Notes under the pieces: generated by a model
The model's database searches: none
Seen by the model: the letters and a program-made list of their open reading frames with translations, nothing else
What the model was told of the DNA's origin: nothing
Assembly (NCBI GenBank): GCA_016180645.1
Contig: JACPAV010000020.1
Location: 1 to 64,000, forward strand
Direction: 5' to 3'
Origin: Nitrospirota bacterium
GTDB taxonomy: Bacteria > JACPQY01
Length of the DNA: 64,000 nt
Made by a program: the position numbers and the translations under genes
Shown: positions 53,637 through 63,178 of the stretch, in pieces
Position numbering within the stretch: position 1 is the first letter of the stretch
Layout of the letters: each line of letters begins with the position of its first letter

Positions 53637-53918
53637 CTATCTTGAGGGCGTTCGTTTTTCCGCCTGAAGCTTTTCCTTAACCCAGCGGTTTATCAGGAAA
53701 GTGGAGGACATGCCCCGCCTTCTTGCGAGCTGCTGCACTTGCCGAGAGAGCCTTTCATCGAGGGCGCAATATGTCGTCTCCGACTGGATGTCCACGTCGA
53801 TAGAAACGGGTTTCGTATTCGGCCAATAGTCGGACAGGTCGTGCGTATCCCAGAACTCCCCGATCTCCCGATAGGACTTGGCTCCCGATAGGGAACTCCT
53901 GCCTCTCCTAGATCTCAT
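53637..53918 (-). CDS. CopG/BrnA-type antitoxin
   Basis: EIGEFWDTHDLSDY and an RHH-like C-terminus (LARRRGMS...LINRWVKEKL). Confidence 0.8.
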   Translation of the reverse strand: MRSRRGRSSLSGAKSYREIGEFWDTHDLSDYWPNTKPVSIDVDIQSETTYCALDERLSRQVQQLARRRGMSSTFLINRWVKEKLQAEKRTPSR

Positions 53919-54204
53919 TTCTCCTCCGTTCGGACCGACTCATGTCTCTTGCGGATAGTATGAGGGCTTGGTGGTTTTTCTTCAACACGAAGAACGCAAT
54001 CAAGTATCGTCCGGAACGTGTGCGTCCCATGGCCTCGTACACATTCTCACCCTTGCGGTACCCCTTTTCAACGAAGCGGAATGAGGGAAGATTTGACAGG
54101 AGTTCCCGTACTTCACTTTTCTCTACGTGGTGTTTCGTGGCCAACTTGTGGACGATATCGTCGAGCCAGATAAGTCCATCGATTCTCAACCGTCCGCGGG
54201 CCAC
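53908..54204 (-). CDS. brnT: BrnT-family toxin
   Basis: W...KL..KH.V...EV.E, G.T..GRYL, ILSARDM...ERR. Confidence 0.85.
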   Translation of the reverse strand: MARGRLRIDGLIWLDDIVHKLATKHHVEKSEVRELLSNLPSFRFVEKGYRKGENVYEAMGRTRSGRYLIAFFVLKKNHQALILSARDMSRSERRRNEI

Positions 54205-54207
54205 GGA

Positions 54208-57200
54208 TTACGGCAGGTTCGTAACGGGGACGGGGGTGAGGCGGTTGACGGTGGTGCCGTCGCCGAGCTGGCCGAAATCGCCGCGTCCCCAGCATTTGAC
54301 CGCGCCGTCGGAAAGAAGGGAACAGGTGTGAGAGGCTCCCCCCGCGACGGCCACACCGCCCGAAAGGGAAGACACGGCGATGGGAGTCAGGCGATTAGCG
54401 GTCGTCCCGTCCCCAAGCTGACCGTAGCCATTGTTCCCCCAGCATTTCACCGTGCCGTCGGAAAGAAGGGAACAGGTGTGAGAGGCGCCCCCCGCGACGG
54501 CGACAGTTCCCGACAGGCTGCTCACGGCCACGGGGGTCGATTTGTCCGCCGCCGTCCCATCCCCGATCTGACCGGTGTTATTCTGCCCCCAGCATTTCAC
54601 CGTGCCGTCGGATAGAAGGGAACAGGTGTGATCGTAGCTCCCCGCCACGGCCACAGTTCCCGACAGGTTGCTCACGGCCACGGGGTTCGATTTGTCCGCC
54701 GTCGTCCCATCCCCAAGCTGACCGAAGAGATTGTACCCCCAGCACTTCACCGTGCCGTCGGAAAGAAGGGAACAGGTGTGGGAGGTGCCCCCCGCCACGG
54801 CCACAGTTCCCGACAGGCTGCTCACGGCCACGGGGTTCGATTTGTTCACCGTCGTCCCGTCCCCAAGCTGACCGAAGAGATTGTACCCCCAGCACTTCAC
54901 CGTGCCGTCGGAAAGAAGGGAACAGGTGTGAAGCCCGCCCCCCACGATGGCCACACCGCCCGACAGGCTGCTCACGGCCACGGGGGTCGACTTGTCGGCG
55001 GTCGTCCCGTCCCCGAGTTGGCCAAAATTGTTGGCACCTCCGCCGCCCCAGCATTTCACCGTGCCGTCGGAAAGAAGCGAACAGGTGTGATTCTGGCCCC
55101 CGGACACGGCGACACCGCCCGTGAGATTGCTCACGGCCACGGGGGTCGTCTTTTGCGCCCCCGTCCCGTCCCCAAGCTGACCGTAGAGATTGTATCCCCA
55201 GCATTTCATCGTGCCGTCGGAAAGAAGGGAACAGGTGTGATTGCCGAGGTGGGCGGTGAGTCCTTCGCGCCACGGCCGGGCAGGGGCGCCGGAGGCAGTG
55301 CCTTCGTGGAGGCGCGGAAGTTTCACGCCCATCGGGCTGGCGGGCATGGAGACGGTAACGCGAGTCGATTTGTCTACCGTCGTCCCGTCCCCAAGCTCAC
55401 CGTAGAGATTGTTCCCCCAGCATTTCACCGTCCCATCCGAGGCGAGGGCGCAGGTGTGGGAGTTCCCTCCCGCCACGGCAACCGCGCCCGAAAGGGCGGA
55501 AACGACGACCGGAGTCGTCTTGTTCGCCGTCGTCCCGTCCCCAAGCTGACCATTGAGATTGTATCCCCAGCATTTCACCTTCCCATCCGAGGCGAGGGCG
55601 CAGGTGTGGTAGATCCCTCCCGCCATGGCGACCGCGCCGGAAAGGGTGGAAACGGCCACCGGAGTCGTCTTGTCCGCCGTCGTCCCATCCCCAAGCCCGC
55701 CATACAAATTGCGGCCCCAGCATTTCACCGTTCCATCCGAGGCGAGGGCGCAGGCGTGATAGTACCCTCCCGCCACGGCGACCGCGCCGGAAAGGGAGGT
55801 GACGGTCACGGGGGTCGATTTATTGACCGTCGTCCCGTCCCCAAGCTGACCAGAGCCATTGTCACCCCAGCATTTCACCGTGCCGTCGGAAAGAAGGGAA
55901 CAGGTGTGCCAGTTGCCCCCCGCGACGGCGACAGCCCCGCTCAGCGCGGACACGGCGATCGGGGTCGATTTGCCCACCGTCGTCCCGTCCCCTAGCCGAC
56001 CGCTGCCATTGTACCCCCAGCATTTCACCGTGCCGTCGGATAGGAGGGAACAGGTGTGAATATTACCCCCCGCGACGGCGACAGCCCCGCTCAGCGTGGA
56101 CACAGCGATGGGCGTCGTCTTATTCACCGTCGTCCCGTCCCCAAGCTGACCCTCGTTATTGTCCCCCCAGCACTTCACTTTGCCGTCGGAATGAAGGGAG
56201 CAGGTGTGATTGTAGCCCCCCGCAACGGCTACAGCCGCGCTCAGCGCGGACACAGCGACGGGGGTCGATTTATTGACCGTCGTCCCATCCCCAAGCTGAC
56301 CACTGGAATTGTATCCCCAGCATTTCACCGCTCCACCGGAGGCGAGGACGCACGTGTGGTAGCCGAAGTGGGTCGTGACGACCTGCGCAATGCCGATGGT
56401 GGACCACGTGAGGGCGGATTTTTCGACGGTGTTGGATTCGACGTTGAGGGCTTCATCGCGGGCGCGGACGCGGTAGTAGACTTTGGTTCCCTGCGTGAGC
56501 GAGCCGTCGTTGTACGTCGTCGCACCGGCCGAGGTTGTGAACGTCACGCTCCAGGTGGTGGTGCAGTAGTTGGGCGTGGTGGCGCGACAGATTTGGTACA
56601 CGATCGCGCCGGAAGCGCTCACGGTGTCCGACGCCGCGCTCCATGCGAGATCAACGTTCGTTGCCGACGTTGCCGTGGCGGAGGTCAGCCCGCCGAACGT
56701 CGGCGGCGTGTTGTCGAATGTGAACGCGTTCCCCGCGCCGGGCGTTTCGATGTTCGTCACGTTGTCGCTCGCCCGGGACTTGATCGTGTATGCGCTTCCA
56801 CTGACCCACGTTGGAAGTGTGAAGGAAGAATTCCATGAGGTGGTCCCCGACGTGGCAAGCCACACAAGCCCCGCCTGCCATGCGGAAGTTCCATCCCAGT
56901 AGAAGCTGTCGGAATTCCTCTGAACGGAAAGCTGCACGGTGTTGATTCCGCTTCCGGCGCCATCCGCAGCCGTACCGGAAATGAGGGCCAGCGAACTTAG
57001 CTTCGCGTTGTTGGCGGGCGTTGTGATCGCGGACGACGGCGCCGCCGTATCCGGTTTGAAGCCGTCCGAGAACGCCCACGCGCCGAAATTGTTGACATTG
57101 TCCTTACCACGAACGCAGTGGTAGTAGGTCGTTCCATTCGTCAGCGCGAGTCCGGTGCGATTGATGTTCGTGGCCACCAGTTGCGTGGTGCCGGCCATGT

Positions 57201-59790
57201 CTCCGGTGCATGCGGTGGAACTGCTGATGTTCTGTTCATAGCCCGCCACTCCGCTACCGGCATCGCTGAATCCCGCCCAATTCGAGTCCGTTGCATTCGT
57301 AGCCGACTGAAAATCGACATCCGCCCCCGTGCCGTCGTTCACCGTTCCCGCGGTGGGGCCCGCGGTATCCAATGTGATCGTATCGGAGACCGGCGAGCTG
57401 GGGTTTCCCGCGGCATCCGCGAACGTGGCATAGACCGTTTTGGTTCCATCGCCCGCCGCCAGGGTCCAAGCCTTCGAGGTGGAATAGGTTTCGAAGGACG
57501 AATAGGACGAATTGTCGTTCGAGAAGGACATGGACGTCGCTCCCGTAGCCGAGAGGGTGAGCGTGACGGAGGTGGTGCCGGCGTAGGCCGCACCGGCGTT
57601 GATCGAGTTCGTGCCGCCCGTGGGGGGGGTCTTGTCATTGGTTTTTGAGGTCACCGGGCTCTGATTCCCGGCCGCATCGCGGGCCACGATGTGGATCAGA
57701 TCCGACGCATCCGACTGATTGTCTCCAATACTGAAGGCGGTGAACGAGCCAGCGCCCGCGGCGGTGGACTGACCGATGAGCGCGGTGAGAAGGCCGTCCG
57801 AGAACACTTTGACGGTGCTGCCGCTTTCGACCGCGCCTGCGGAACCGGAAAGCTGGTCTGCCGTGCCCGGCAGATTCATGGTAACTGTGAGCTTCGTAGG
57901 GTCCGGCGCGGTGGGGGCTGTGGTGTCGGGAGGCGTACAAACAGCTCCCTCGTCCGTGAGGCCGTCGCAATCGTTGTCTTTTGAGTCGCAGATTTCTGTT
58001 GCGGGAGATCCGGCAACGGCATCGCAGACCGTGCCGGCTCCGTCCGTTTTGCACACGTTCGTCCCCGCCCTCCCACATTCCCCGACACCCGCCGAGCACA
58101 CCTGCCCTTTGTTCGTGAAGTCCTCGTCCGTTTTCGCGTCGCAGTCGTTGTCGGCGCCGTCGCAGGACTCGACGCCGGGCGACACCGTGGACGCGCAGGT
58201 AAGCGCTCCGGATACGCATACTTGTTTGCCGGGCGCGCAGACGCCGGGTTGGGAGGAGGTACAGGAAGCGGAGGGGAGGTCTTCGTCTGTTTTGCCGTCG
58301 CAATCGTTGTCCTTGCCGTCGCAAACCTCGGCGGCGGGGACTGAGGGGAGAGCGGAGCAGCGGGTGCCCAAGCCATCGGGCTTGCAGATAACCGTTCCGC
58401 TGGCCTGGCAGGCACCCACGCCAGCGGTGCAAGGTTGGCCGAGGGAGGCCCCCCCACCCACACCCTCCCCCGCCAAGGGGGAGGGGGCAATTATGAAGTC
58501 CTCGTCGATGAGCTGATCGCAGTCGTTGTCTTTGCCGTCGCAGATTTCGGCGGAAGGGGCGCACGCGGGCAGGACGGTGAAAGTGACGGTCGCGGGCGTG
58601 GAATCTTTGTTGCCCAGCGCGTCGCTCGCGGCTACGTTCAATGTGTAGGACCCGTCCTTCGACAATCCGCCTGAGGCGGACAGGACGAATGGGGTGGAGC
58701 ACGGTTTGGGCTCGAACGATTCGGGGCCTGTGAGGGAGCAACGGAATGTGCATGACGCCTCGTTGCACGCGAACGCGAAGGTGTACGGGTCGTTCGACGT
58801 GCGACGTTCGACGTTCGACGACACCACCGTCTCCGGTGGTGTGAGGTCCATTTCCTTGATCTCGATCTTGACCGCTGCCGGCGGCGTGACGCCCGCGGCC
58901 TTGAAGTCTTCCTTCACCTTCGTTTCCAGCTTCGTCGCGAGCGACTGGAAGGCCGCTTGCGCCTGCTCCTGCGTCGGCTTGGCCTGGGACGTTGCATCGG
59001 AAGCAATCTGAACGGCCTGGTCGAGCGTGATCTTCTTGGCTCCCTCAAGGGCCGGCGTGGCCAGAACCGTGGCCACTTCCACCAAGGTGGAGACTCCATT
59101 CCCATCCAGATCGGGAAGATCCACGTCGTTGAGGGCGATGGAGGTCTCCTCGATTTGGATCTCGAAGGAGACCGAGCCTGAAGGCTCGGCTACGGAACCT
59201 GCGGAAGGTTGACCTGCGGAGCCTGAAGGCTCCGCTACGGGAGGAGGAACCTTCATCTTCACGGTCGTCCTGACCTCGACGAGCGGGACATCCTGGTGCC
59301 GGCCGGGACGGACCCGCGTGCGGAAGGTGTTCTCGCCATCACGGGCGGCTTTCTTGGGTAGAAAGAAAGTGACCTCAAACGCAAAGGCAAGCTCGCCCTC
59401 TTCTGCCTGGCGACGCGCCGCCCCCCTGACACCGCCCCTCACGCCTCCGCGGACACCGGATGCCTCCGCCGCCCGGATGCCTCCTTGAACATCACCGCGC
59501 ACTCCGCCCCGGATGCCCCCGCGGATCCCCTCGGCCACCAACTCGTCGTTGACCAGGATGTCCGCCACCACCTCATCCTGCTCGGCCACACCGTTCAGGG
59601 CCGCAGCGACCTCGGTGGAAAGAGGCACGGAAACCGCCATCGGAACGGCGTCCTCAACAGCCGCATCAAGCGTGGCAGATTGCTCGGTTTTTCTCAGGCA
59701 AGACGATAGGATTGCTGACACAACAAGGAAACAAATCCCCCGTGCGAACAGGCGGTCCCTTCGCTCTGGTCTTCCCGCCCTCCCGTGCAT
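54208..59790 (-). CDS. Giant surface lipoprotein/adhesin: GIRGG region, Ig-like, Cys-rich CDGKDNDCD repeats, FN3 and 14 RCC1 repeats (two propellers)
   Basis: Own lipobox (FLVVSAILSSC) after ATG 59790; lies in the same open frame as the upstream recombinase. Confidence 0.85.
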   Translation of the reverse strand: MHGRAGRPERRDRLFARGICFLVVSAILSSCLRKTEQSATLDAAVEDAVPMAVSVPLSTEVAAALNGVAEQDEVVADILVNDELVAEGIRGGIRGGVRGDVQGGIRAAEASGVRGGVRGGVRGAARRQAEEGELAFAFEVTFFLPKKAARDGENTFRTRVRPGRHQDVPLVEVRTTVKMKVPPPVAEPSGSAGQPSAGSVAEPSGSVSFEIQIEETSIALNDVDLPDLDGNGVSTLVEVATVLATPALEGAKKITLDQAVQIASDATSQAKPTQEQAQAAFQSLATKLETKVKEDFKAAGVTPPAAVKIEIKEMDLTPPETVVSSNVERRTSNDPYTFAFACNEASCTFRCSLTGPESFEPKPCSTPFVLSASGGLSKDGSYTLNVAASDALGNKDSTPATVTFTVLPACAPSAEICDGKDNDCDQLIDEDFIIAPSPLAGEGVGGGASLGQPCTAGVGACQASGTVICKPDGLGTRCSALPSVPAAEVCDGKDNDCDGKTDEDLPSASCTSSQPGVCAPGKQVCVSGALTCASTVSPGVESCDGADNDCDAKTDEDFTNKGQVCSAGVGECGRAGTNVCKTDGAGTVCDAVAGSPATEICDSKDNDCDGLTDEGAVCTPPDTTAPTAPDPTKLTVTMNLPGTADQLSGSAGAVESGSTVKVFSDGLLTALIGQSTAAGAGSFTAFSIGDNQSDASDLIHIVARDAAGNQSPVTSKTNDKTPPTGGTNSINAGAAYAGTTSVTLTLSATGATSMSFSNDNSSYSSFETYSTSKAWTLAAGDGTKTVYATFADAAGNPSSPVSDTITLDTAGPTAGTVNDGTGADVDFQSATNATDSNWAGFSDAGSGVAGYEQNISSSTACTGDMAGTTQLVATNINRTGLALTNGTTYYHCVRGKDNVNNFGAWAFSDGFKPDTAAPSSAITTPANNAKLSSLALISGTAADGAGSGINTVQLSVQRNSDSFYWDGTSAWQAGLVWLATSGTTSWNSSFTLPTWVSGSAYTIKSRASDNVTNIETPGAGNAFTFDNTPPTFGGLTSATATSATNVDLAWSAASDTVSASGAIVYQICRATTPNYCTTTWSVTFTTSAGATTYNDGSLTQGTKVYYRVRARDEALNVESNTVEKSALTWSTIGIAQVVTTHFGYHTCVLASGGAVKCWGYNSSGQLGDGTTVNKSTPVAVSALSAAVAVAGGYNHTCSLHSDGKVKCWGDNNEGQLGDGTTVNKTTPIAVSTLSGAVAVAGGNIHTCSLLSDGTVKCWGYNGSGRLGDGTTVGKSTPIAVSALSGAVAVAGGNWHTCSLLSDGTVKCWGDNGSGQLGDGTTVNKSTPVTVTSLSGAVAVAGGYYHACALASDGTVKCWGRNLYGGLGDGTTADKTTPVAVSTLSGAVAMAGGIYHTCALASDGKVKCWGYNLNGQLGDGTTANKTTPVVVSALSGAVAVAGGNSHTCALASDGTVKCWGNNLYGELGDGTTVDKSTRVTVSMPASPMGVKLPRLHEGTASGAPARPWREGLTAHLGNHTCSLLSDGTMKCWGYNLYGQLGDGTGAQKTTPVAVSNLTGGVAVSGGQNHTCSLLSDGTVKCWGGGGANNFGQLGDGTTADKSTPVAVSSLSGGVAIVGGGLHTCSLLSDGTVKCWGYNLFGQLGDGTTVNKSNPVAVSSLSGTVAVAGGTSHTCSLLSDGTVKCWGYNLFGQLGDGTTADKSNPVAVSNLSGTVAVAGSYDHTCSLLSDGTVKCWGQNNTGQIGDGTAADKSTPVAVSSLSGTVAVAGGASHTCSLLSDGTVKCWGNNGYGQLGDGTTANRLTPIAVSSLSGGVAVAGGASHTCSLLSDGAVKCWGRGDFGQLGDGTTVNRLTPVPVTNLP
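54230..56360 (-). repeat. 14 near-identical ~150-bp RCC1 coding repeats in two blocks of 7
   Basis: CGTCCC(G/A)TCCCCAAGCTGACC-like core recurs every 150 bp within each block. Confidence 0.9.
58449..58487 (-). repeat. REP-like palindrome in frame (PSPLAGEGVGGG)
   Basis: CCCTCCCCC GCCAA GGGGGAGGG hairpin interrupting a Cys-rich repeat. Confidence 0.75.
59172..59238 (-). repeat. Two GTAG-type REP hairpins in frame (VAEPSGS x2)
   Basis: GTAG-CCGAGCC TTCA GGCTCGG and GTAG-CGGAGCC TTCA GGCTCCG. Confidence 0.7.
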
Positions 59791-59952
59791 TCCGTCTACT
59801 CTACGCCTGCCGGCCCATAGGTCAAGCATGCCAGCCAGGACGGTGCGGTACTCGGCTCCAGAGCCGAGCCACGAAGGTGAGGCATACTTGGCCGAGTGCC
59901 CCGGGGGCCGATTCCATGTGGGTTGGGGCCGAACAAACCGGTCATGCAGAAT

Positions 59953-61509
59953 GGGGGCGCAACCGTGGCTCAAAGAAAGATCACCTATGGGAATGATATG
60001 GCGGATGGTGATGCGACGTCCTTTGACGATCACGCGGTCCACCAGGAGGCGCAGGATGTTCACCTTTTGCTCGAAGCTCGGATTCTGAAGAGCCTTGACA
60101 ACTTCCTCGCACAAGCCTTTCACGCCTTCGATCAAGTGTAGCTGTTTCCGTTCCTCTTGGCGACGCGCTTCGAGCTCGGCGAGACGGGTTCGCAGGTGCG
60201 TCTTCTGATGGGCGATCCGCTCTTTTCTTTCTTTGAGCCGGTCCATCTCGATCTGGCCGCTCTGGTACGCATCGAGCAGTCTCTCCTCCTCCTTCTCCAG
60301 CATCCGGAGCCGGATGTCGATGCGATTGTGTTCGCGCTCTTCGACCGTCTGGTGCATGGGGTCCGGGAGGCCCTGGGCCGCGTACTGAAGGATGAGATCC
60401 GGTCGGCTCAGGATCTTTTGGAGGGACTGCCACACGATCCGCTCGACGGGATCGGCCGGCACCCCGGGGGCCTTGCATCGATCGGGACGGTCCAGGGGAT
60501 ACCTCGCCGGGCAGAGGTAGAGATGCTGATCTCCGGTGCTGGGGTGGCCCACCAAGCGGCGCCCACACCCACCACAGATGAGCAGGCTCTTGAGGAGATA
60601 GGCGTGCTGGGTGTTGTGCCGCCGGGAGAACCGAGAATGCTTGTCGAGTCGCTCCTGCGCCTCCTGCCAGGTCTTCTCGTCCACGATCGCCGGACAGGGC
60701 ACCGCGATCCACTCTTCCTTCGGGCGATGCGTTCGGCCCCGTTTGAGACCCGGCCGGATGTCCTTCCATCCCTGCCGGCCGATCGGATGCACTCGGTCCG
60801 AGAACGTCTCGCGGTTGGCATACCGCCGCCCCTTGTAGCACTCCTTCCGAAGCACGGTGGAAACATACCCCGACGACCAGTACCCCGGACCTTTGCGCAT
60901 GGGCATGCGGCGTTCATTGAGGCGCCGGGCGATCTCGCGGGTGTTCAAATCCTGTTCCACCAACCCCGTGTACATCAACCGCACGGCTTCGGCTTCCGCC
61001 TCATGGATCTTGATCGCCCCGCCGATGCCGTCGTCGCTTTTTCGGATAAAGGCGTACCCAAAGGGGGCCCGACCGCCCGTGATCCGACCCTGCTTGGCCG
61101 CCAAGATGAGGGTACGTTCATACTGTGCGAACACCCCTTGCATCTGGAGAAGCATCTGGTCCTCCGGCCGGTCCGAGTACCGATGGTTCAGGAAAACCAC
61201 TTCAACTCCGGCCTTCTTGAACTCATCCAAGAGGACCATCTGGACCACGAAGTCGCGGGCCAACCGGTCCGGCTGATAGACGTAGAGGAGTTCCATCCTC
61301 CCCTCGTGGATGTCGTCGCGAAGCCGCTCCAAGGCCGGGCGGTGGAGCACCGTTCCGCTCTGGTTCACATCCACATACTCGCGTTCGGACTCCACCTCGT
61401 TGCCATCGGCCTTCGCCCGCTCCCGCAGGGCATCGACCTGACTCTCAATCGTGTGACTCTCGTCCTCCGGACGAGGCGAAATCCGGGCGTACAAGGCGCT
61501 AATCTTCAT
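59953..61509 (-). CDS. Large serine recombinase (resolvase, recombinase, Zn-ribbon, coiled coil) with no stop codon of its own
   Basis: ALYARIS catalytic Ser, SGTVLHRPAL, PDRLAR, APFGY, YLLKSLLICGGCG; AGGAGG RBS. Confidence 0.9.
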
Positions 61510-61717
61510 CGTATCCTCCTGAGGCTTTGAGCAGGGGTTCCGTCTCGACGCATCTTCCCGTCATCGACGGATCGTTCGTTTTCCTCCGGTTCATCCCAGG
61601 AGGGGAGCGCAAAATCCGATAGGCCCGCCTCAAATACGCCTCCGCCTCGCGGTGCCGGATCTCTTCCCATTCCATCTCCCACGCAGTCTCCTTCTTCCTT
61701 GACGCGATCCGAGGCAT
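61499..61717 (-). CDS. Small hypothetical protein upstream of the recombinase
   Basis: Overlaps the recombinase start; EAEAYLRRAYRIL helix. Confidence 0.45.
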   Translation of the reverse strand: MPRIASRKKETAWEMEWEEIRHREAEAYLRRAYRILRSPPGMNRRKTNDPSMTGRCVETEPLLKASGGYDED

Positions 61718-62164
61718 GGAACACTCCTCCCGCCCCCCCGAACCCTCACCTCTTCCTTTTCTTCTGTGAGTCGGTCAGGGGAAGGGGAAGATTCGGCGGG
61801 CGTTCGTTTCAGGCGCGGGGGGAGAAACTTCTTCTGATACAAAAGGGGGTAGATACAGCCCCGCGCTCCTTCACGAAGAGATCGCCTCCAACGGTAAGCG
61901 ATGTGATGCCGACACTGGCACACATCCCAATAAGGCGCTTTACATTTGTTCGGCGGGAAAACCAACTTCTGAGGATGCTTGAAGATCTCGAACTCGATAT
62001 AGGTTTTTATTGAGCTAAGATTGGGGGCGTAATCCGCACAAACTCGGAATTCGAGGGCCTCCCGGCCTGTAGGACCCGTTTGCAGCGTTTCCGCAGTTCT
62101 CAGGATGTCGACCCATTACGCTCAGTGTGTCATGCGACCGATCTTGTACCAGTTCCCACCCACG

Positions 62165-63178
62165 TCAGAATTTCAGCGTGAACTGGAATCGGAGGGGATT
62201 ATTCAAGGGGTCAACCAGGAATAGGGTGGTGCCGACCGCGATGTTGTACCAGAAGTGTGCGGCCACGACAGGCGCAAGACGGTGTGAGCGCTTGTCGAAG
62301 AGGAGTCCCAGGTAGAGTCCCCCAAGAGTGCCGTTCAGAAAGCGATCCGTTTTTTCCGTGGACGTGCCTGAGGGGAGGGTGTGGGCGAATCCAAAGAGGG
62401 CGGAGGCGAGGAGTATGCCCGGCCAACGACCGGTACTGTCCTGAAGTTCTTCCTGAACCATACCTCGCCAGAAAGCCTCCTCGGCCGCAGCCGTCATGAT
62501 GGACCCCGAGACAAGTTCGCTTCCGTAGAGGGCTGTGCCGGAAGATTTGGAGAACGTATGGTCGGCGCGTTCGATGGTCCTGATGTCGTCGTAACGAGAG
62601 GCGCGGCGCGTGAGCGCTTCGATCGTGGTGGCGGAGGAAGCGAGGATCCATCCGAAGTGGACCCAAGGGTCGCTGAGTGTGGTGGGTGAGAAGGGGGCAA
62701 GAAGGAGCCGCCCCTCGGAGGGCGGAGCGTTGGCCAGGCCGTTTGTGCGGGACTGTCTGAATGAATGCCGGGCGGCAAGATAGGTCGTGGCGATGCTGAG
62801 CTGGTAGGTTTTCTCGGCCAAGTGGTAGGCGATGTTTTGATCGGCATATGAATAGTCGGTGGCGGAGCGATCAAGGATGTAGCCTGTCGCGACGAGCGCT
62901 GCGGGAGCCGCGGAATACGCTGCGGCTCGGGAGTAGTCGCCAAGGTATGCGTGCCCTGCGCCGGGAATCAAAGACAGGAGCATTGCACGAGACATGCTGC
63001 GATTCGCGGGGCCGTCGACGTAGGCCGGGTCGACCGTCCTGGTCGCTTCCGGCACCGCTTCGGCATCCTGCCGGCGGGAAGGATCTGCCAGGGAGAGCCG
63101 GGGGCCGGGGGAGCAAAGGATACCGGTGATGAACGCGGTCGTTGTGACGATCAATCGACAGCGCTGTTGGGGGGCCAT
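62165..63178 (-). CDS. CPBP (CAAX/Abi) intramembrane glutamic endopeptidase
   Basis: EEAFWRG, LFGFAH, AHFWYN motifs; LSLIPGAGH.Y N-terminal motif. Confidence 0.85.
   Translation of the reverse strand: MAPQQRCRLIVTTTAFITGILCSPGPRLSLADPSRRQDAEAVPEATRTVDPAYVDGPANRSMSRAMLLSLIPGAGHAYLGDYSRAAAYSAAPAALVATGYILDRSATDYSYADQNIAYHLAEKTYQLSIATTYLAARHSFRQSRTNGLANAPPSEGRLLLAPFSPTTLSDPWVHFGWILASSATTIEALTRRASRYDDIRTIERADHTFSKSSGTALYGSELVSGSIMTAAAEEAFWRGMVQEELQDSTGRWPGILLASALFGFAHTLPSGTSTEKTDRFLNGTLGGLYLGLLFDKRSHRLAPVVAAHFWYNIAVGTTLFLVDPLNNPLRFQFTLKF

Follow-up and report, generated by a model that had tools for sequence, protein, structure and literature searches.

A probable cargo-less large serine recombinase element in the 5' region of a surface-adhesin gene of a Nitrospirota bacterium

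Among described systems, the locus analysed here comes closest to Tn4451 and Tn5397, clostridial transposons that use a large serine recombinase (LSR) for their movement, and next to the serine integrases of phages, which work together with directionality factors. In Tn4451/Tn4453 and Tn5397, the transposase (TnpX and TndX, respectively) is an LSR, the circle joint equals the donor site, a short common sequence is found at the junctions, and the elements span 6-20 kb; in Tn4451, a promoter is formed at the circle joint. Directionality factors act at the foot of the serine-integrase coiled coil. Our study concerned a window of 64,000 nt from a Nitrospirota bacterium (assembly GCA_016180645.1, contig JACPAV010000020.1, positions 1 to 64,000), in which a single open reading frame (ORF) of 2433 codons, 54208..61509 on the reverse strand, joined an N-terminal LSR to a C-terminal adhesin. 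Very probably, the LSR belongs to a cargo-less, transposon-like element of 2,070 bp (left inverted repeat, small gene, LSR, right inverted repeat) that was inserted at the 3' end of a repeat in the 5' region of the adhesin gene, with the fused frame as a by-product. The comparisons below demonstrated that a segment was inserted and where it begins and ends, that its ends are inverted repeats, that the frame is continuous, and that the layout is found throughout the family.

Pfam placed a Resolvase domain at residues 5-137 of the long frame (E 7e-27), a Recombinase domain at 171-290 and a Zn_ribbon_recom domain at 305-363, and identified three MopE motifs and 13-14 RCC1 repeats in the adhesin part. 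The last conserved strand of the LSR, ITIRHIIP, was followed by ..LSHGCAP at 59948-59962, and from there 57 unremarkable codons led to ATG 59790, with the lipoprotein signal ..FLVVSAILSSC next. A first-pass annotation of this DNA had described one 2433-codon frame passing from recombinase into adhesin, a recombinase ending in IRHIIP..LSHGCAP at one copy of a repeat (59948-59962), and an adhesin that kept its own lipobox downstream; the ORF, the Pfam domains, and the LSSC motif after ATG 59790 bore this description out. The insertion was located 168 nt upstream of the adhesin ATG and left both the adhesin coding sequence and a promoter-like site intact. The promoter-like stretch before ATG 59790 was downstream of the insertion and identical in an empty paralog (see below), and the adhesin start is probably leaderless or near-leaderless.

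The two ends of the element carried, on the gene strand, the 15-mers TTGCGCCCCCATTCT (59962-59948) and TTACGCCCCCAATCT (62032-62018), which matched at 13/15 positions and were 2,070 bp apart. Between the ends there were only a 72-aa gene and the LSR, and no cargo genes. When the genome was searched with the LSR, the 37 residues after the LSR matched at 89% a site 58 kb along the same contig, which proved to be a paralogous adhesin locus (C20:118.1-118.3k). The leader and signal peptide of this paralog were 98-99% identical to the window from CGCCCCCATTCTGCATGACC.. to the lipobox, and the identity stopped at the 15-mer; upstream of the core, the paralog read ..GATTTCGCCCCC, a degenerate copy of the flank repeat, and the left flank of the window read ..GATTACGCCCCC. 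As the identity with the paralog ended at the 15-mer and the same repeat was located upstream, the insertion in the window was therefore exactly 2,070 bp between the repeats, and the paralogous adhesin locus is, by these alignments, an almost identical empty site. An orthologous empty site was not found in the order, which comprises two genomes, the other of which (84% complete) gave no match to the neighbouring protease and contained many adhesin paralogues, none of them assignable.

The joined ends of the window element read TTGAGC-N22-GCTCAA, with the symmetry centre within the shared core, and showed dyad symmetry around a central dinucleotide, as is the case for serine-integrase att sites (ca. 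40-50 bp). From this symmetry we infer a crossover at CC 59957-59956, codon positions 2-3 of the LSR frame. A second copy of the element, at C26:12845-14872 (ca. 2.0 kb), was situated downstream of an smc-like gene, and its LSR was 51% identical to that of the window and frameshifted near residue 350. The left end of the C26 copy was homologous to the window left end from AATCT on, its ends formed a 20/22-nt inverted repeat with a score that none of the shuffles reached (0/500), and its LSR frame also exited via the right end, for 26 codons. The first-pass annotation had regarded the 15-bp imperfect direct repeats, at their spacing of 2070 bp, as candidate att sites of a minimal element integrated upstream of the adhesin, and had pointed to other copies and empty sites as a check on its boundaries. 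The repeats were real and marked the element ends according to the empty paralog, which fitted the same 2,070-bp ends; the ends of the C26 copy were homologous, so that the proposal of a minimal element was supported by both loci.

The same kind of element was found well beyond this genome. Among the candidates scored, 2147 LSR homologues were retrieved at E<=1e-20, the best at 43-45% identity, and a family scan with one genome per species yielded 80 loci from 217 relatives. Comparison of copies within genomes delimited the planctomycete units listed in Table 1, and in a Bacillota metagenome-assembled genome (MAG) a pair of copies shared ca. 1,867 bp at 85% identity. The element ends of the relatives were 23-27-bp inverted repeats. 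After cut or partial matches were left out, 53 of the 80 loci entered the search for end repeats, and 52 were analysed, as one had too little flank; in 21 of these 52, the inverted pair, 1,872-2,413 bp apart, was never reached in 100 shuffles. Relatives in other phyla are units of 1.9-2.4 kb that resemble insertion sequences (IS) in being multi-copy, each genome having 3-7 nearly identical ones. Of the 117 listed homologues with a recorded contig size, 69 were on contigs no longer than 3 kb; this count was given no weight as a sign of repetition because metagenome contigs are short anyway. LSR elements without cargo and with a small partner gene are a widespread family. In the full-text literature, outside of which were subscription journals and ISfinder, no cargo-less 2-kb LSR element and no LSR gene spanning attP was found to be described.

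The recombinase of the window has an N-terminal Resolvase domain, followed by a Recombinase domain and a zinc ribbon with an inserted coiled coil, and aligned over 99% of its length to at least 40 homologues. The catalytic residues S11, R9, D81, R82, R85, and Y130-E131-R132 were present. Helix E was not intact, as it had a gap of nine residues where 20/20 aligned relatives have R/E-R-T/M-R-R-G-R/Q-L, and three nearly invariant positions were changed (P12, E15, and Q129 vs. T/S, Q, and E in the relatives). The LSR thus appears to be a member of the family by descent, while the activity of the window copy is doubtful and was probably impaired by the nine-residue deletion.

Of the 61 relatives' loci searched, 34 had the small gene immediately before the LSR. 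None of 32 members of this small family had a Pfam match, and the best match in the PDB was at chance level (E 0.43). A complex predicted for the small protein and the LSR scored 0.76 by the interaction prediction score from aligned errors (ipSAE), vs. 0.50 for the best of three controls; the mark of 0.76 was reached by 116/157 solved complexes and by 2/215 mismatched pairs. Contact agreement between runs was at least 51%, and the predicted local distance difference test (pLDDT) value of the partner was at least 54. In the predicted complex, strand 11-22 of the partner lies alongside strand 498-510, the last one of the LSR, while the helix of the partner packs against LSR helices 469-491 and 354-379. 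The model lends support to a putative binding of the small protein to the LSR, and we read the small protein as a candidate directionality factor or cofactor.

The LSR frame has no stop inside the window element and therefore runs on into the surface protein, as the flank has no stop over 57 codons and shares the phase of the adhesin. Relatives with ends fixed by copy comparison behaved similarly, with the stop outside the element at +35 nt in L087 (CP197414), at ca. +35 nt in L069, and at ca. +700 nt in L051. At loci of the CACCATCC type (ends CACCATCCGAAC..), the LSR frame was open past the TG junction in 10 of 12, L061 and L083 being in another phase. Of the 21 loci with a significant pair, 16 had no in-frame stop before the end of the detected right repeat; the first stop overshot it by 18-1,358 nt or was absent from the locus. 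All 11 CACCATCC-type loci checked at both junctions had TG just outside each end of the element, and TG is therefore taken as the crossover in this subfamily, in which it stands between perfect arms.

When the CACCATCC-type ends were joined, the LSR frame continued into a tail of 32-35 aa, HHPNAIxxLRATLVIPYRS.., with a conserved TAG at its end; this held for 10/10 loci, and for one more when read in its own register. Within this tail, third codon positions had 454 differences, as against 312 at the first and 267 at the second, and the other two frames contained stops. The joined ends of the window and C26 elements encoded NLSSIKTYIEFEIF.. and NLHGIETYLEFEIL..*, respectively; over codons 5-14 of these two tails, 7/9 differences were at third positions (manual count), and the joined C26 frame stopped after 32 codons. 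The site centre was on codon positions 2-3 in all three subfamilies. Both 15-mers began at the third codon position, so that joining the ends keeps the LSR frame and enters that of ORF 61630-61965. The first-pass annotation had predicted by hand translation that the circle would extend the recombinase into this ORF; the continuity of frame stood, but the ORF as a whole was unconserved, with ca. 16 codons after the junction shared with the C26 copy.

We read these layouts to mean that the element ends are attP half-sites and that attP overlaps the 3' terminus of the LSR gene. After excision, the LSR frame of the circle would pass over the joint and finish with a short tail and stop codon provided by the left end; in the chromosome, a flank-encoded sequence would replace the native tail. 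Movement would take place via the circle, by conservative recombination at the central dinucleotide. Because integration would remove the tail and the stop at the crossover, the enzyme made from the chromosome would differ from the enzyme made from the circle. Tentatively, and with the balance somewhat against it, we suggest that the LSR gene may be whole only in the circle and that the loss of tail and stop, together with the small partner, predicted to dock on the last strand beside that tail, may form a built-in state sensor that sets the direction of recombination, a serine counterpart of the archaeal 'suicidal' integrases.

The att site was composed of the end of the flank repeat and the start of the adhesin leader, and over 24 positions the site of the paralog differed at one. 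Close to the core, there was a resemblance between the repeat end and the right end of the element, and between the leader start and its left end, as would be expected of attB and attP. The flank repeat family had at least nine copies in the genome, all ending in ..CGCCCCCAAT(CT), and five repeat copies, including that of the window and the degenerate one at the paralog (C20:118.3k), preceded surface lipoprotein genes that read in the same direction. Some copies started with the motif GGAAC-N15-CG. No tRNA and no Rfam family were detected at 59000-63000, and evidence for a conserved fold of the flank repeat was unconvincing (consensus -3.5 kcal/mol, with 1 compensatory pair). The repeat may be a promoter or leader that several genes share, or one end of a different mobile element. 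The end of a TnpB guide RNA was considered for the left-flank repeat and rejected, as the neighbouring gene of 388 aa encodes a CPBP/Rce1-like protease and not TnpB.

A repeated sequence as target fits the element family. In 11/11 loci (Table 1), CACCATCC-type relatives were inserted at TG/CA in the His codon of a C-x-x-H motif within transposase genes of the IS66 and IS256/Mutator families, for example in CWAHLRRDF and QRCQFHL. These relatives appear to be transposons that parasitise the transposase genes of other transposons. A hairpin repeat of ca. 55 nt that resembles repetitive extragenic palindromic (REP) sequences (..CTCGGC..GCCGAGTACCGCACCGTCC-TGGCTGGCA) was also observed within the adhesin leader, at 59829-59883 on the reverse strand, and in at least eight other places in G000 (on C27, C47, C22, C32, C17, C18, C23, and C3).

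Metagenomic support for the locus was sought in the Logan contigs of four runs, X1-X4, of which X1-X3 belong to a groundwater study and two of X1-X3 may be the source of the assembly; runs X5-X12 contained less than one tenth of the words and were left out. A contig of 2,143 nt over 59904-62046 was identical to the window, with zero differences, in X1-X3. Depth over the element was similar to that over the flank (9.8 vs. 9.2 in X1, 44 vs. 47 in X2, and 8.8 vs. 8.8 in X3). The first-pass annotation had named a stop or frameshift at the junction as the sign of an assembly error, and none was present at the junction itself, which was bridged by the 2,143-nt contig. Farther downstream, the version of the leader with one more base after 59855, as in the paralog, would stop the LSR frame at TGA 59824-59822, 46 codons past the junction. 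This extra base was present in the only contig over that place in X3 (depth 14.8/14.8) and absent from X1 (0/9.63), X2 (0/75.5), and X4 (0/8). The shared leader, 59708-59933, occurred in at least three versions among the four runs, with five substitutions at 59743-59765 and the base after 59855 in varied combinations, which suggests gene conversion between paralogues or mixing of strains.

Several observations weigh against our account of the element and its frame. The 15-bp repeat alone was not beyond chance, because a match of at least 13/15 between both search regions arose in 9/100 shuffles. The inverted repeat of the window is imperfect and gapped, with its score reached in 3/500 shuffles, and the crossover of the window element is a position deduced from symmetry; in the C26 copy, the dinucleotide at the dyad centre differed between the two junctions. 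Five of the 21 significant-pair loci stopped earlier than the right repeat, three of these far inside the gene, and many of the closest relatives (40-45% identity) ended in ..ENLR* or ..KLR* soon after the conserved end, at a point that may lie inside or outside the element. In CACCATCC copies that are integrated, a start codon (ATG or GTG) arises at the junction, ahead of the 'tail', which could therefore be a separate small gene and not a part of the LSR. Mapping of empty-site and circle joints, as proposed in the first-pass annotation, returned neither joint in the contigs of the four runs, in which rare forms are invisible.

The first-pass annotation had further suggested that excision would swap the upstream region of the adhesin and could act as an expression switch. 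A programmed switch of this kind, with excision and reintegration turning the adhesin on and off or with the fusion itself as the selected product, would draw on the position of the insertion between the adhesin leader and an upstream repeat that also precedes other surface lipoprotein genes (five in all), on the shared direction of element and adhesin, which makes read-through transcription possible, and on the paralog as a second, nearly identical attachment site. However, the promoter-like site of the adhesin is downstream of the insertion and the same in the empty paralog, joints were absent from the contigs and element depth equalled flank depth, and the LSR has lost nine residues from an invariant stretch, while the sole other copy in the genome is frameshifted. 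The fusion also depends on a single base, as one extra base closes its frame in X3, and no conserved fusion was found among longer homologues: the 17 LSR homologues above 903 aa (904-967 aa) had no adhesin domains, although this long-protein search is weak evidence. We therefore consider a switch very unlikely. Given the separate promoter-like site of the adhesin, the nine residues missing from the LSR, and the failure to see any excision product, the LSR-adhesin fusion is best read as an accident of insertion and not as a device.

An equally small chance was given to the in-frame continuity being an artefact of assembly, produced by mixing two near-identical leaders. The stretch 59708-59933 is common to both adhesin loci, short contigs do not allow it to be phased, its several versions differ among the runs, the version with the extra base would end the LSR frame, and no open version was seen in X3. 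In X1, X2, and X4, however, all contigs over 59855 lacked the extra base, so that the locus from which they come, whichever it is, has the open version, and the junction between LSR and leader was bridged without differences in X1-X3. Least probable of all, with hardly any weight, is that the LSR belongs to a larger island or prophage and that the 2-kb boundaries are misplaced. LSRs are usually found at the edges of prophages, conjugative elements, and cassettes; against this, the insertion relative to the paralog was exactly 2,070 bp between the repeats, the next upstream gene encodes a CPBP-family protease and is followed by a host repeat, and the relatives move as units of 2.0-2.1 kb. The insertion of a small, self-contained element in the adhesin 5' region thus remains the preferred explanation.

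Table 1. Positions of the element, its sites and neighbouring features in the window, and of related copies in other places
Feature	Position	Strand	Remarks
LSR, residues 1-516	59962..61509	-	no stop inside element; nine residues missing from helix E between 135 and 136
Conserved gene, 72 aa	61499..61717	-	overlaps LSR start by 11 nt; core motif WxIxSxxVPxRDxxRRLxQAxxLL
attR, right junction	59948..59962	-	core CGCCCCCA common to attL; dyad centre of joined ends on CC 59957-59956
Right terminal inverted repeat (P arm)	59960..59988	-	inside last LSR codons; score in 3/500 shuffles
Left terminal inverted repeat (P' arm)	61999..62023	-	paired with right repeat
attL, left junction	62018..62032	-	15-mer match and repeat-family end
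Left-end stretch that would encode the LSR tail in the circle (NLSSIKTYIEFEIFKHPQK..)	61960..62017	-	same frame to stop at 61630; second copy has homologous NLHGIETYLEFEILEPF..*
Flank repeat copy	62021..62160	-	family of 115-165 nt, sharp 3' end ..GATTACGCCCCCAAT as B arm of att site
Flank repeat, other G000 copies	C32:118052-118189, C32:89378-89487, C32:141023-141165, C3:100761-100845, C8:116-251
Flank repeat, further G000 copies	C29:36327-36398, C31:254897-255009, C15:1271-1353
Leader and signal-peptide stretch, B' side of att site	59715..59956	-	98-99% shared with paralog; holds single-base site after 59855
Promoter resembling sigma-70 type, TTGACC-N16-TAGAGT	59798..59825	-	ends 7 nt before ATG 59790; 1 site vs. 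0.5 expected (shuffles)
Adhesin, large surface lipoprotein, 1860 aa	54208..59790	-	ATG 59790, lipobox LSSC, MopE motifs, RCC1-like repeats; alternative start ATG 59829
Planctomycetota MAG G003			unit 2,002 bp; 7 full-length copies; copy comparison
Second Planctomycetota MAG, G004			unit 2,002-2,003 bp; 4 full-length copies; copy comparison
Complete planctomycete genome CP197414.1 (G002)			unit 2,081 bp; 3 full-length copies; copy comparison
CACCATCC-type loci in transposase genes	L050, L051, L054, L055, L057, L058, L064, L067, L069, L071, L080		several phyla

Surface proteins with MopE, FN3, and RCC1 modules are a large paralogous family in this lineage. With the N-terminal 497 aa of the adhesin as query, 47 matches were obtained in G001, the sole other genome of the order. 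Within the adhesin, one RCC1 repeat was replaced by the unrelated sequence ..MPASPMGVKLPRLHEGTASGAPARPWREGLTAHLG.. at ca. 55260-55400 on the reverse strand (residues ca. 2040-2085), breaking the 150-nt spacing; a double frameshift that was compensated could account for this odd stretch. The adhesin gene was followed directly, on the same strand, by a small pair of genes for a BrnT-like toxin (53908-54204, under the Pfam cut-off) and a CopG-type antitoxin (53637-53918).

The fusion of LSR and adhesin is itself probably of no consequence, and the interesting part of our findings is the element family and its gene layout. Compact, self-contained site-specific systems are of interest for genome engineering with serine integrases, and the family could serve as a clean model for the control of recombination direction. 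For annotation, the family explains calls of a 'recombinase fused to neighbour' and the very variable lengths of recombinases.

Compared with Tn4451/Tn4453 and Tn5397, the window element is alike in the use of an LSR as transposase, in the circle route proposed here, and in a short sequence common to both junctions. It differs from the TnpX/TndX transposons in having no cargo and a length of 2.07 kb vs. 6-20 kb, and also in its small partner gene, in an LSR frame that crosses the att site, and in the defined, conserved targets of its subfamilies. A promoter formed at the circle joint, as in Tn4451, was looked for by eye and not seen. A TndX-like subfamily is named in the accessible part of one study, where it is described as multi-targeting, with DUF4368 in 63% of the clade (PMC10083194); the LSR of the window lacks DUF4368, which was not among its Pfam hits at E up to 0.01.

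The phage-type serine integrases (phiC31, Bxb1, A118/LI, SPbeta) share with it the same three-domain recombinase and an imperfect dyad att site with a central dinucleotide. The foot of a coiled coil, where the small partner is predicted to bind, is also where directionality factors bind. Directionality factors of these integrases are treated in the accessible part of PMC11722253. Unlike these integrases, the window element carries no phage or island and is its own cargo, its relatives are present in multiple copies, and its partner belongs to no known family.

The first-pass annotation had taken it as established that some LSRs have their att site within their own 3' end. This could not be confirmed, as the part of PMC8371274 available gives that layout for archaeal tyrosine integrases only: these 'suicidal' integrases of the SSV type, from viruses and plasmids of archaea, have the att site in their own gene, so that integration alters the gene, and are restricted there to archaea. 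The likeness to the SSV type is thus an att site inside the recombinase gene; the difference is that theirs are tyrosine enzymes, split mid-gene and inactivated, whereas the window enzyme is a serine recombinase of a bacterium that retains every domain, the loss being confined to tail and stop codon.

IS607 elements are also small and moved by a serine recombinase, and are described in the accessible parts of two sources as lacking terminal inverted repeats, as having their domains in the opposite order, and as showing minimal specificity for a target (PMC6188088, PMC4058570). The window element falls outside the IS607 family, as its LSR has an N-terminal catalytic domain, a length of at least 516 aa, and a C-terminal DNA-binding zinc ribbon with a coiled coil, and its element family has inverted repeats and specific targets. 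Switches of the skin/SpoIVCA type interrupt a coding sequence that excision restores, which the window element does not do, as the adhesin coding sequence is intact. IS870 of Agrobacterium is a DDE element in which a fixed target sequence creates the stop codon of the transposase. The window element resembles IS870 in having no stop inside the element, the flank supplying one, and differs in that the stop seemingly comes from the other end of the element in the circle and from chance in the chromosome.

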